A stretch of DNA of 64,000 bases. Source: Escherichia coli. Lineage in GTDB: Bacteria > Pseudomonadota > Gammaproteobacteria > Enterobacterales > Enterobacteriaceae. Shown here one piece after another: positions 21,201 through 24,200 of the stretch. The position numbers were made by a program. Positions within the stretch are counted from its first letter, which is position 1; every line of letters begins with the position of its first letter. The stretch lies in the NCBI RefSeq assembly GCF_024502345.1, contig NZ_JALDNN010000001.1; one strand, written 5' to 3'.

Positions 21201-24200
21201 TTTGACCTTAATCATGTTTTTTGATAGATATTTTACGACTGAACATATCCGTCGTTTCCTCTGACTCGTGTCAGTCGGTCTCTGGTTGTATCCACGGACC
21301 GCACTCTTGACATAAGAGTGCGGTCCGTGGAAAACGGAGTTGAAAAAATGGTGTCTGAAAGAAGGTACCATCATTGTGATGACAAATACTTTGGCGTGGA
21401 TAATGTAATTAATTGCTGAAATTGACCGTATATGCGGTAAGACTCATATCAGTATCAGGTCCGGTTAATTGCTGATACTAATATAAACTTTTTACAAAAG
21501 GATGAATGCAGAAGGTTACTCTAATGGCCAGAGTGATGACAATGATGGTCAGACGTTGACCTGCAGAAACTGCATTTTAATTGGTCTATAAAGTCTGCAA
21601 GAGGAATCAGGGTCAGATCAGTGAGTCTTATCGCGGCCCGAAGCTATGACTGAAAGAAGGCTGGATACAGAATTGCAACAATTTGGCAATGTCAGAACAC
21701 AGAAGCTTTGCAAGCAGGTGAAAGGTTATGTCTAGCAAAAGGAGTATATCAGAATATATCTACTGATGTACAAAACACAACAATAGCTTCATGATATATA
21801 AATACGTGATGACGAGTGGTACTCCGCATGGTTATTTAACTTCTCAGCACCACTAATGATCCTGAGCAACTTCGTATTTGGGCCATTACCATGGAGTAGA
21901 AAGCTGTGTCTGAGAATGCAGAATTTGAGAAAAGAATTCGCTTTCTTGGAGAGCTTCTGAAAATGGCACGCTAACAACGTTTTGTTAAAAAATGTGAATC
22001 ACTTGCCGGGGTTGCATTTTCTATTCGAGGAGAATGTTGACGTAGATATTACAGAAATCTCAGCGCATCAGGATAAACTGCTACCTTAGGTCAACCACCA
22101 AAAGAAAATACAATACGTCCAGTTTGTATGCCTTTAATAACACATCTTCTAAATGTTGAAGAATTATCCCGCCTGCTGAAGAACGTTGCTCTGAGTGTGA
22201 TAAACCTTTTTATTCTTGATGATGTCAGCGAGAAGATGGAATATATCCCCGACTGGGTCGTGGTTACCCGGTTAAACATCTGGTGGCGCTAATAAATCTG
22301 GCAAGTCACATTCTGTTGAATGCTGTGACAGTGCCTTACCGAGAGAGCGAAATTGTGGTGTTCTAGTGCATAGTCGCCACCATTCCGGATAATTCTATTA
22401 CGTTGTTTTACAAGTTCTTTTACAGCGCAGATCTGTCGCTGACGTTGAATCAATAGCCTGGATTTCAGAACACAATGCCCGTTTGCTGGTTGTTCCGGCA
22501 GTAGCATTAATTCATTATCTGAATGAAATGTGTCAATCCACAGAAACCGCTGTCAATGACGCATTTTGTCGGACGTTAACACGAGAAAGTCTGGCTATTC
22601 CGTAATGCCATCTTATTTCGTAATGGATTGAGAATGCTGGATTTTTAATTATATTACGCGCAGTATTAATCGCGTAAATGTTTTGCGGTCAGCAACGGTG
22701 GGGGATCCATTGTTCTGTTCAATGAATACCATCATACATTTGAATCAGGAGTCGGTATGATGATTTTGGTGACGGGGGGCGCACGGAGCGGGAAGAGTCG
22801 CCACGCAGAGGCGCTTATTGGGGACTCTTCACAGGTTCTGTATATCGCTACCTCGCAAATCCTTGATGATGAGATGGCTGCACGGATAGAACATCATCGG
22901 CAAGGCCGCCCGGAGCACTGGCGCACAGTGGAGCGCTGGCAACATCTTGATGAATTAATTCATGCAGACATTAACCCGAATGAGGTTGTGTTGCTTGAAT
23001 GCGTTACCACAATGGTGACTAATCTGTTGTTTGATTATGGCGGCGATAAAGACCCTGATGAATGGGATTATCAGGCGATGGAACAGGCGATTAATGCTGA
23101 GATTCAGTCGTTGATTGCTGCCTGCCAACGTTGCCCCGCAAAGGTTGTATTAGTGACTAACGAAGTGGGAATGGGGATTGTGCCGGAGAGTCGTCTGGCA
23201 CGACATTTTCGTGATATTGCCGGGCGGGTAAATCAGCAGTTGGCCGCTGCGGCAAATGAAGTATGGCTGGTGGTTTCGGGTATTGGAGTAAAAATCAAAT
23301 GAGTAAATTATTTTGGGCGATGCTCTCATTTATTACGCGTCTGCCTGTACCGCGTCGCTGGTCCCAGGGACTGGATTTCGAGCATTATTCTCGCGGTATT
23401 ATTACTTTTCCTTTGATTGGATTATTGCTTGGCGCGATTAGCGGGCTGGTCTTCATGGTGCTGCAGGCATGGTGTGGCGCACCACTGGCGGCACTGTTTA
23501 GCGTACTTGTGCTGGTGCTGATGACCGGGGGATTCCATCTGGACGGCCTCGCTGATACCTGTGATGGCGTATTTTCTGCACGTAGCCGCGATCGCATGTT
23601 GGAAATCATGCGTGATAGCCGTTTAGGCACCCACGGCGGTCTGGCATTGATTTTTGTGGTACTGGCAAAGATTCTGGTGTTAAGCGAGTTGGCTCTGCGT
23701 GGCGAATCGATCCTTGCATCGCTGGCGGCAGCATGTGCGGTCAGCCGCGGGACTGACGCATTATTGATGTATCGTCATCGTTATGCGCGGGCAGAAGGGC
23801 TTGGCAATGTGTTCATTGGCAAAATTGATGGGCGACAAACCTGCGTCACACTCGGCTTAGCCGCTATTTTTGCTGCCGTATTATTGCCGGGTATGCATGG
23901 TGTGGCTGCTATGGTGGTGACGATGGTGGCGATTTTCATCCTCGGTCAGCTTCTCAAACGTACGCTGGGCGGGCAAACGGGCGATACGCTGGGAGCAGCC
24001 ATAGAGCTTGGTGAACTGGTCTTCCTGCTGGCACTGCTATAAAGAGACGTGAGATGCAAATACTTGCCGATTTACTGAATACGATCCCAGCCATCGATTC
24101 TACCGCTATGTCGCGTGCACAACGGCATATTGACGGGTTACTCAAACCTGTTGGTAGCCTGGGAAAGCTGGAGGTGCTTGCCATACAACTGGCAGGAATG

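Follow-up and report, generated by a model that had tools for sequence, protein, structure and literature searches.

A perfect 18-bp palindrome in the pseudogene yoeH of Escherichia coli, a probable molecular fossil of an IS1111-family transposase gene

A long perfect palindrome lies upstream of a truncated TonB-dependent receptor gene in Escherichia coli, which raises the question of whether it is a working site or a relic. The DNA analysed is a 64-kb stretch (assembly GCF_024502345.1, contig NZ_JALDNN010000001.1), referred to here as the window. An earlier note had placed the palindrome in a non-coding remnant region and offered three readings: a protein-binding operator, a recombination or attachment site of a lost prophage, or part of a small RNA. 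The palindrome is found here within the reading frame of a decayed transposase gene. It is probably a molecular fossil of that gene, perfected by a template switch and no working site. Features of the locus are listed in Table 1.

Table 1. Features at the palindrome locus (window coordinates).
Feature	Position	Strand	Remarks
Truncated TonB-dependent receptor gene	20552..21112	-	yoeA homologue; annotated start at 21085; divergent from yoeH
Sigma-70 promoter-like site	21135..21164	+	TTTTCA-18-TATAAT
Small upstream hairpin	21261..21274	.	5-bp stem, CTGAC-TCGT-GTCAG; unremarkable
Palindrome	21291..21331	.	K-12 MG1655 2068389-2068429
Transposase C-terminal pseudogene	21298..21468	+	Last 56 codons and natural TAA stop; IS1111-family (IS110-type)
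3' non-coding and right-end remnant	21469..21735	+	IS1111-type; seekRNA/bridge-RNA region in living relatives
Decayed IS66-family fragment	21710..22360	+	End of tnpB and start of tnpC; abutted by the IS1111-type element

Geometry and copy number of the palindrome

The two arms occupy positions 21291-21308 (TCCACGGACCGCACTCTT) and 21314-21331 (AAGAGTGCGGTCCGTGGA), are complementary at 18 of 18 positions and enclose a 5-nt loop (GACAT). The earlier note quoted the sequence correctly as a 17-bp perfect palindrome at 21292-21330, but the stem is in fact 18 bp, one base longer on each side. It is the longest perfect hairpin of the window, and the runners-up have 14-bp stems. The longest perfect stem in simulated windows was usually 9-10 bp and reached 14 bp once (60 first-order Markov simulations); the palindrome is far beyond chance. 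Predicted folding energies are -37.4 kcal/mol as RNA (z = -9.1) and -24.4 kcal/mol as DNA (z = -9.9). No second copy of the arm sequence was found in the window with up to three mismatches allowed. The small hairpin that had been noticed just upstream is present, immediately to the left of the edge of IS homology.

The sequence after the stem reads AAAACGGAG on the plus strand and TACAACCAG on the minus, with no T-run on either. An intrinsic (Rho-independent) terminator was rejected, as it had been before, for want of a U-rich tract, and a terminator scan does not report the palindrome. Rfam gave nothing at gathering score at the palindrome, only chance-level matches to miRNA and CRISPR-repeat families (E >= 0.3, searched to E 10). 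Like Rho-independent terminators and REP elements, the palindrome is a GC-rich stem-loop in a transcribed region; it differs from them in having no U-tract on either strand, in being single-copy, and in having a stem longer than the window's other hairpins.

The locus was searched for in 5,426 E. coli genomes. It is present once per genome in 2,753-2,841 of them, with a median of one place; roughly half of the complete E. coli genomes carry the element, as one copy at this single locus. By our reading, the 'second place' seen in the distant search mode is a self-match of the palindrome on the opposite strand. A widespread, multicopy REP-type repeat, which the earlier note had named as the finding that would undo its proposals, is not what was found. 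Membership of a dispersed REP/BIME-type family has nothing in its favor beyond the GC-rich palindrome itself; with a single copy in the window and one locus per genome, it is already refuted and can be dismissed.

The transposase frame at yoeH

The palindrome overlaps the first 31 nt of yoeH (b4641), an annotated pseudogene in the CP4-44 region of MG1655 that is identical to window positions 21301-21459, so the description of the region as non-coding does not hold. An ISEc66-type transposase of 339 aa aligns over residues 284-337 to positions 21298-21459 (48% identity, E 4e-9, tblastn), and the alignment stays in one frame through both arms and the loop. The homologous frame extends beyond the yoeH annotation (21301-21459), from 21298 to a natural stop at 21466-21468, where the remnant ends in ISIRSG-stop and the relative in VSIRPY-stop. 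In-frame TAA codons occur at 21313-21315, in the palindrome loop, and at 21406-21408; there is no frameshift.

Exhaustive HMMER searches over the libraries matched IS110-type C-termini only (E 3.7e-4), with just two matches, each a piece of an ISEc66-type transposase with 51% identity, and tblastn against plasmids matched ISEc66 and ISEc11. At the DNA level, positions 21332-21468 are 63-64% identical to the coding sequence of living relatives. The domains PF01548 and PF02371 are absent from the remnant, and both lie upstream of the surviving piece. The conceptual 56-aa peptide gave no candidates in a word-indexed protein search, and a closely related, intact parent of the IS was not found in the libraries searched. 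One of the two HMMER matches looked like a second truncation at the same IHG codons; it proved to be an internal deletion bounded by the direct repeats IHKGRAA and IHGARAA and has no connection with the hairpin. Judged by this homology, yoeH is the tail end of an IS1111-family transposase gene, with ISEc11 and ISEc66 as relatives. The yoeH record gives no product or note, and both the transposase link and the palindrome are contributions of the present analysis.

The homology continues downstream. Positions 21469-21713 (245 nt) share 74-76% identity with the DNA that follows tnp in living relatives; similarity is clear to 21713, and the final ~20 nt of the right-end remnant are uncertain. This long non-coding region sits downstream of tnp, as in the IS1111 layout, whereas it lies upstream in IS110 proper. 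To the left of ~21280-21290, no homology to the transposase gene or the IS left end was found (score 9, against 10.1 +/- 1.3 in shuffles). The locus is thus a truncated relic with two in-frame stops, and not an element with both ends and an intact transposase. The adjoining IS66-family fragment is 70-73% identical to IS66-family elements on plasmids, and the MG1655 pseudogene yoeG corresponds to window positions 21828-22360. In the phage collection there was a single match, 284 nt at 100%, to a 2.5-kb record named 'Campylobacter phage B14', which we take to be E. coli DNA within that record.

ISEc11 and ISEc66 are IS1111-family elements with IS110-type DEDD transposases guided by a seekRNA or bridge RNA. 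The remnant resembles them in its C-terminal 56 codons, homologous in one frame, in the identity of its 3' non-coding DNA, in the inverted repeat formed by the same codons, and in adjoining an IS66-family element, as several living copies do. It differs in keeping only the last ~420 nt, in a protein identity of 45-53%, in its two in-frame stops, and in its stem, which is a perfect 18 bp where ISEc11 and ISEc66 have 10 bp and then a large internal loop. The remnant cannot be expected to move.

The setting might recall a recombination site, whether an attachment remnant of a lost prophage, an IS end, or part of an IS1111 guide (seekRNA or bridge RNA): the palindrome is at the edge of the CP4-44 region, within an IS1111-family remnant and at that remnant's 5' truncation edge. 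However, it is inside the reading frame and ~400 nt from the right end of the IS, a position that largely refutes such a role, and no second copy exists as a partner site. In ISEc11, the guide RNA is supplied by the fragment at bp 1127-1397 (PMC11187229), and the homologous hairpin codons, at ~bp 979-1038, fall outside it. A recombination site is accordingly a very remote prospect, and the proposed prophage attachment site is unsupported; in a broad sense, the DNA is a mobile-element remnant. Part of a small RNA fares no better, with no Rfam match and a position outside the portion of ISEc11 experimentally shown to encode the seekRNA (PMC11187229).

An inverted repeat in living relatives and its probable perfection

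In living relatives, the codons F-I-H-G (TTT ATC CAC GG) and P-W-I-T (CC GTG GAT AA) are mutually reverse complementary and build in a 10-bp imperfect inverted repeat with 37 nt between its arms. The repeat (TTATCCACGG...CCGTGGATAA) is at the same codons in 9 plasmid copies and in 33 distinct plasmid or metagenome copies, and the 10-bp stem, at codons 277-280 and 293-296, is present in 33 of the 33 enterobacterial relatives examined. A scan of viral contigs for relatives gave four loci only. Seven of the ten stem pairs are fixed by the amino acids, and the repeat follows largely from the protein sequence. No covariation was detected in the relatives' stem: 94.5% of cells were paired, against 94.2% in shuffles (181 of 500 shuffles reached the observed value), and the covariation score was 0.179, against 0.169 (reached by 102 of 500). 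Synonymous diversity is not depressed at the stem codons, and more distant relatives are without the 10-bp stem. Phe277 is always TTT, and Ile295 is mostly the otherwise minor codon ATA; both choices favor pairing.

The window copy departs from this arrangement at two places. Between IHG and ALLT it lacks 10 nt (roughly the A-R-A codons), and the codon for Pro291, invariant in 32 distinct relatives, is replaced by TGC. On the right side of the stem, TGC pairs exactly with the Ala codon GCA of the other arm, and the codons for Leu-Leu (CTCTT) and Lys-Glu (AAGAG) are naturally complementary. Relative to an ancestor reconstructed from the relatives, the 10-nt loss and the change from CCN to TGC add 11 new pairs to 7 inherited ones. 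Because no close intact parent was found, that ancestor can be drawn only from relatives 48-53% identical in protein, and the parent IS could already have had a longer stem.

The preferred history is as follows. An IS1111-family element, kin to ISEc11 and ISEc66, once stood beside an IS66-family element at the edge of the CP4-44/yoeA island. It later lost its 5' ~830 nt, leaving the last 56 codons and the 3' non-coding region. Quasi-palindrome template switching during replication probably perfected the coding-derived 10-bp repeat into the 18-bp stem, in an event older than the diversification of E. coli. A template-switch origin is favored because the changes, as reconstructed, are clustered and all raise complementarity, as switching at quasi-palindromes does. 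The nearest relatives are ~30-36% diverged at the DNA level, and over such a distance independent decay would be expected to break an 18-bp stem and not to perfect it. One switch cannot obviously yield both the left-arm deletion and the right-arm TGC, so two events or one complex event would be needed.

Template switching that turns quasi-palindromes into perfect palindromes is well established as a source of mutation in E. coli (PMC7202029), and perfect inverted repeats in K-12 are reportedly maintained by it (PMC5941160). As at the quasi-palindrome hotspots of the Ripley model, studied in E. coli thyA and lacZ reporters, an imperfect repeat would have become perfect through clustered changes, with a multi-base replacement and a change in length (PMC7202029, PMC5941160). 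Unlike those hotspots, the yoeH event is deduced from distant relatives, is fixed in a species-wide pseudogene, and may have taken more than one switch.

The parent IS might instead have carried a long perfect hairpin natively in its transposase gene, which the chromosome then inherited. The 10-bp stem at the same codons in all enterobacterial relatives agrees with this, the codon choice at Phe277 and Ile295 hints at an ancestral stem that may be not wholly accidental, and no close parent is at hand to contradict it. A native hairpin would, however, require the frame-shifting 10-nt loss and a Pro-to-Cys change at the invariant position. The stop codon in the palindrome loop makes the perfect version incompatible with a working transposase, and the relatives' stem, with neither covariation nor synonymous constraint and absent from distant relatives, argues against it as well. 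Native origin is improbable, and perfection by template switching after decay is preferred.

Variation, transcription and function of the locus

The left arm is missing in ~540 genomes, where an IS3 is inserted at 21298 and the DNA to its left is replaced; the palindrome is therefore dispensable. In another strain, an IS3-family insertion lies at about 21266. About 1,770 genomes have a perfect palindrome. The only common variant, of ST131 type, is a C>T change in the left arm that is G.U-compatible on the plus-strand RNA; the receptor gene is intact in ST131. The palindrome segment has one SNP class (~439 genomes) and the next 61 nt have two SNPs (~1,546 genomes); variation in the palindrome is not lower than expected from these neighboring 61 nt.

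The hexamers of the promoter-like site are those given for yoeH as a constitutive, H-NS-associated promoter (Shimada et al. 2014, PMC3946193). Transcription from this site would cross the palindrome ~120 nt downstream. Sense and antisense yoeH RNAs exist, and an rnc mutant is needed to see the antisense one (PMC6847712). The hairpin is probably transcribed within the RNA of the yoeH pseudogene, and nothing points to a role.

A hairpin co-opted as an element of the yoeH transcript could stabilize or process it (for example as an RNase III site), or could act as a roadblock limiting transcription that leaves the divergent receptor/yoeH promoter region. In keeping with this, a sigma-70 promoter is directed through the hairpin (PMC3946193), the locus is transcribed in both senses with RNase III sensitivity (PMC6847712), and the stem is very stable at -37 kcal/mol. 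The ~1,770 perfect copies and the G.U pair retained in ST131 would fit weak selection for a hairpin in the plus-strand RNA. Yet the variant counts as one event, the hairpin shows no reduced diversity relative to its flank, no Rfam family matches, and the left arm is gone in the IS3-bearing genomes. The host gene is moreover a decayed pseudogene, with no phenotype and no 3' or 5' end mapped to the hairpin. Co-option, in the two forms taken together, is considered unlikely.

An operator for the divergent receptor gene or for yoeH was the first of the earlier proposals. A perfect dyad does lie in a Fur-like control region associated with H-NS, ~180-250 bp upstream of the start codon of the receptor gene, and in our own judgement the AT-rich promoter region at ~21110-21140 holds a Fur-box-like sequence. 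The palindrome nevertheless stems from transposase coding sequence and is dispensable in the ~540 genomes. Receptor orthologues at 66-78% identity were found in Kluyvera, Citrobacter, Raoultella, Klebsiella, Enterobacter, Providencia and Izhakiella. The DNA upstream of these orthologues is unrelated, which precludes a deep comparison of the palindrome, and in Kluyvera, Citrobacter, Raoultella, Klebsiella and Providencia it lacks the palindrome. Usual operator half-sites are much shorter than 18-nt arms. An operator is very unlikely.

There is also a slim chance that the hairpin has a function. The perfected stem may have been kept after death of the IS to work at the RNA or DNA level in the yoeH/receptor control region, such as by being an RNase III entry site or a barrier to transcription or replication, or the FIHG/PWIT stem may be an undescribed functional structure of ISEc11-type elements. 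The latter is hinted at by the invariant TTT and preferred ATA codons. A fossil of the transposase gene is the preferred reading.

A striking palindrome beside a Fur-type receptor promoter is not to be read as an operator, an attachment site or a small RNA. yoeH can be named as the C-terminal fragment of an IS1111-family transposase, and the DNA 3' of it can be labelled a dead seekRNA region. The locus would be a natural example of an inverted repeat encoded by a protein motif becoming a perfect palindrome once coding constraint was lifted, in agreement with published work that attributes the upkeep of perfect inverted repeats in E. coli to template switching.

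The palindrome and its locus

The palindrome has 18-nt arms that are 100% complementary by repeat finder and are separated by the 5-nt loop GACAT (Table). The earlier note reported a perfect 17-bp stem at 21292–21330; the sequence is present as quoted, but the true stem is one pair longer. No other perfect hairpin in the 64-kb window is as long: the next-longest, the his attenuator terminator and a palindrome beside yeeX, have stems of 14 bp, and perfect stems seldom exceed 10 bp in first-order Markov simulations of the window. Predicted folding energies are -37.4 kcal/mol as RNA (z about -9, either strand) and -24.4 kcal/mol as DNA (z -9.9). 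No further copy of an arm was found in the window with ≤3 mismatches. T-runs following the stem are absent on both strands and a terminator scan gave no call, which rules out a terminator and agrees with the earlier note. Of 5,426 complete E. coli genomes, 2,840, among them K-12 and O157:H7, carry the surrounding 221 nt at a single place (95–100% identity). The element is thus single-copy, and the REP-type repeat that the note had named as a refutation is ruled out.

Table. Coordinates of the palindrome and neighboring features.
Feature	Window position	Strand	Details
Palindrome	21291–21308 / 21314–21331		K-12 2068389–2068429
yoeH (b4641) pseudogene	21301–21459	+	MG1655 2068261–2068419; placed by sequence identity
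Sigma-70-like promoter	21135–21164		TTTTCA-18-TATAAT; promoter scan
Truncated TonB-dependent receptor gene	20552–21112	-	On one side of the palindrome
cobU	22757 onward		On the other side of the palindrome
Second-longest perfect palindrome	19225–19253		CAATGAGGGTTGCC C GGCAACCCTCATTG; 14-bp arms, 1-nt loop; just 3′ of yeeX
yoeG	21828–22360		Decayed IS66-family fragment
PduV/EutP-like GTPase fragment	19312–19668	-	Adjoins yeeX
'Cobalamin biosynthesis protein' fragment	22453–22600		Upstream of cobU

Gene order in the window is his leader, sbmC, yeeA, yeeX, a short island, cobUST, and asn tRNAs. In K-12, the palindrome has the first yoeA fragment on one side and IS5 on the other, at the border of cryptic prophage CP4-44. 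Because yoeH is identical to 21301–21459, the palindrome overlaps the first 31 nt of this annotated pseudogene; the region, previously called a non-coding remnant, is a mobile-element remnant but is not free of annotation. The island is flanked by Salmonella-type pdu/cob relics, one of them read as GTPase-like from its ORF translation, and both mark former boundaries of a replaced cob-pdu segment. The 284 nt at 22083–22366 are 100% identical to the start of MG065683.1 ('Campylobacter phage B14', 2,504 nt), most likely because that record contains E. coli DNA.

In the minus-strand receptor promoter region, tgtaatgataattattttcatt (about 21110–21140) resembles a Fur box, which would fit an iron-regulated TonB-dependent receptor, and overlaps the -35 hexamer of the divergent yoeH promoter. 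Receptor orthologs in Kluyvera, Citrobacter, Klebsiella, and Raoultella (L020–L034) share an upstream motif, AAATTGAC(A/T)CAAATCAAAGATGCAT, about 100–160 nt 5′ of the receptor start and followed by a Fur-like box. By sequence, the motif resembles an FNR/CRP-type TTGAT-N4-ATCAA site; the E. coli receptor copy lacks it.

yoeH as a truncated IS1111-family remnant

A distant DNA search of plasmids matched 21427–21713 to the 3′ end of an IS110-family element and 21710–22270 to the tnpB/tnpC junction of IS66-family elements, at about 68–73% identity. By tblastn, residues 284–337 of a 339-aa plasmid transposase aligned to 21298–21459 (48% identity, E 4e-9). The window translates in this frame as TALLT*ECGPWKTELKKWCLKEGTIIVMTNTLAWIM*LIAEIDRICGKTHISIRSG*, and the plasmid transposase reads AALLTKEPGPWITELKKRRPASVAIVAMANKLARTVWAIAAHGRKYDKNHVSIRPY*; the reading frame therefore persists over 56 codons as far as the natural stop, interrupted by two TAA stops but not frameshifted. 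The relatives named by tblastn against plasmids were ISEc66 and ISEc11, the latter a characterized 1443-bp IS1111-family element. According to Siddiquee et al. 2024 (PMC11187229), a seekRNA specified by the non-coding stretch that follows tnp directs ISEc11 to its targets. Window 21469–21713 is 74–76% identical to the region downstream of tnp in living relatives.

No transposase similarity was detected left of about 21285 (best local score 9; shuffles 10.1 ± 1.3), whereas the right flank scored 30 (shuffles 11.4 ± 1.7). What survives is thus a ~420-nt 3′ relic of an IS1111-family element, with the palindrome at its 5′ truncation edge and yoeG adjoining it. This truncated remnant retains the C-terminal transposase part and the downstream non-coding region but is not a complete element. 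Exhaustive HMMER searching of 1.84 billion representatives returned only two matches, each a C-terminal piece of this type of transposase, and protein searches yielded no close intact parent. The palindrome is internal to the transposase reading frame, ruling out an IS end and the attachment or recombination site proposed earlier. Position also rules out part of a guide RNA: the ISEc11 stem codons lie at about bp 979–1038, outside the guide-RNA fragment at bp 1127–1397 (PMC11187229).

Directly 3′ of yoeH, 21469–21735 is a decayed IS1111-type 3′ non-coding region (seekRNA/bridge RNA-encoding in ISEc11), closer to living relatives (74–76%) than the adjoining coding remnant (63–64%). Many living ISEc11/ISEc66-type right ends (...GCGTTCATACAG or ...CATATA; L050–L094, L013/L017) have an ATG about 4–9 nt beyond, suggesting that start codons often lie just beyond the points where these elements, or their retargeted guides, land. 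Several living copies lie inside IS66-family elements (L004, L014, L016), like the window relic. A metagenomic ISEc66-type copy (L010, 2600–3260) has an internal deletion between direct repeats encoding IHKGRAA and IHGARAA, leaving an 82-aa ORF whose homology starts, like that of the window relic, at the IHG codons. A 23-codon ORF (MVSERRYHHCDDKYFGVDNVINC) at 21348–21419 (+), directly 3′ of the palindrome and 8 nt after GGAG, is not in frame with the transposase remnant; its two ST131-type differences are one synonymous and one Tyr to His, and it is probably spurious.

Origin of the perfect stem

The homologous codons (F-I-H-G-A-R-A-A-A-L-L-T-K-E-P-G-P-W-I-T) were found in nine plasmid copies and 33 distinct enterobacterial copies drawn from plasmids and metagenomes. 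Here, TTATCCACGG and CCGTGGATAA form a 10-bp stem with a 37-nt interior. Amino acids fix 7 of its 10 pairs, and synonymous choice decides only three. In the 33-sequence alignment, 94.5% of cells are paired versus 94.2% when shuffled (181 of 500 shuffles reach the observed value), and the covariation score is not raised. Synonymous diversity at the stem codons is ordinary, with the true trough at the 5′ end of the transposase gene. The protein motif therefore accounts for most of this ancestral stem, which is lost in more distant relatives where PEW replaces GPW. The only contrary hint is codon choice (Phe277 always TTT, Ile295 mostly ATA).

The window retains ATC CAC GG (I-H-G) and CCG TGG (P-W) but lacks 10 nt between IHG and ALLT. 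TGC stands where all 32 distinct close relatives tallied have a Pro codon and pairs exactly with the Ala codon GCA in the opposite arm; Leu-Leu CTC TT is complementary to Lys-Glu AA GAG. With the 10 nt gone, these segments line up, giving 7 inherited and 11 new pairs around a loop holding one of the two stop codons. The surrounding relic shares only 63–76% identity with its nearest relatives, and at such divergence independent decay should degrade a stem rather than add 11 perfect pairs. Template switching at quasi-palindromes characteristically leaves clustered changes, each of which increases complementarity. Such switching is an established process in E. coli (Klaric et al. 2020, PMC7202029), and Lavi et al. 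2018 (PMC5941160) proposed that it maintains the perfection of inverted repeats in Proteobacteria. The palindrome resembles known products, and such switching, perhaps more than once, would have converted the imperfect repeat. The shared edge suggests that truncation and perfection could be linked.

Present activity and significance

The hairpin is probably transcribed from the sigma-70-like promoter, which reads toward it and which Shimada et al. 2014 (PMC3946193) list for yoeH as constitutive and H-NS-associated. Sense and antisense yoeH RNAs are reported, the antisense detectable only without RNase III (PMC6847712), and the common ST131-type variant, C>T, retains a G.U pair on plus-strand RNA. 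These observations would fit co-option of the hairpin for an RNA-level role. However, in about 540 genomes an IS3 right end abuts 21298 within the left arm and the DNA to the left of the IS3 is foreign, and strain WP9-S17-ESBL-11 (L007) carries an IS3-family insertion at about 21266. Palindrome polymorphism is not lower than in the adjoining 61 nt, DNA upstream of orthologous receptor genes in seven other genera is unrelated to this locus, and the absence of an Rfam match also goes against the earlier suggestion of a small RNA. Co-option is improbable, and the palindrome is most likely a neutral relic.

The IS3 common to about 540 genomes is of the E. coli 042 type (L002, 3991–4001), and its far side joins unrelated phosphotriesterase-related pseudogene DNA. 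The two IS3-family insertions are independent and lie ≤35 nt apart, at or beside the palindrome.

The value of the finding is a correction of annotation, and the locus provides a clean natural example of palindrome perfection after coding constraint was lost.
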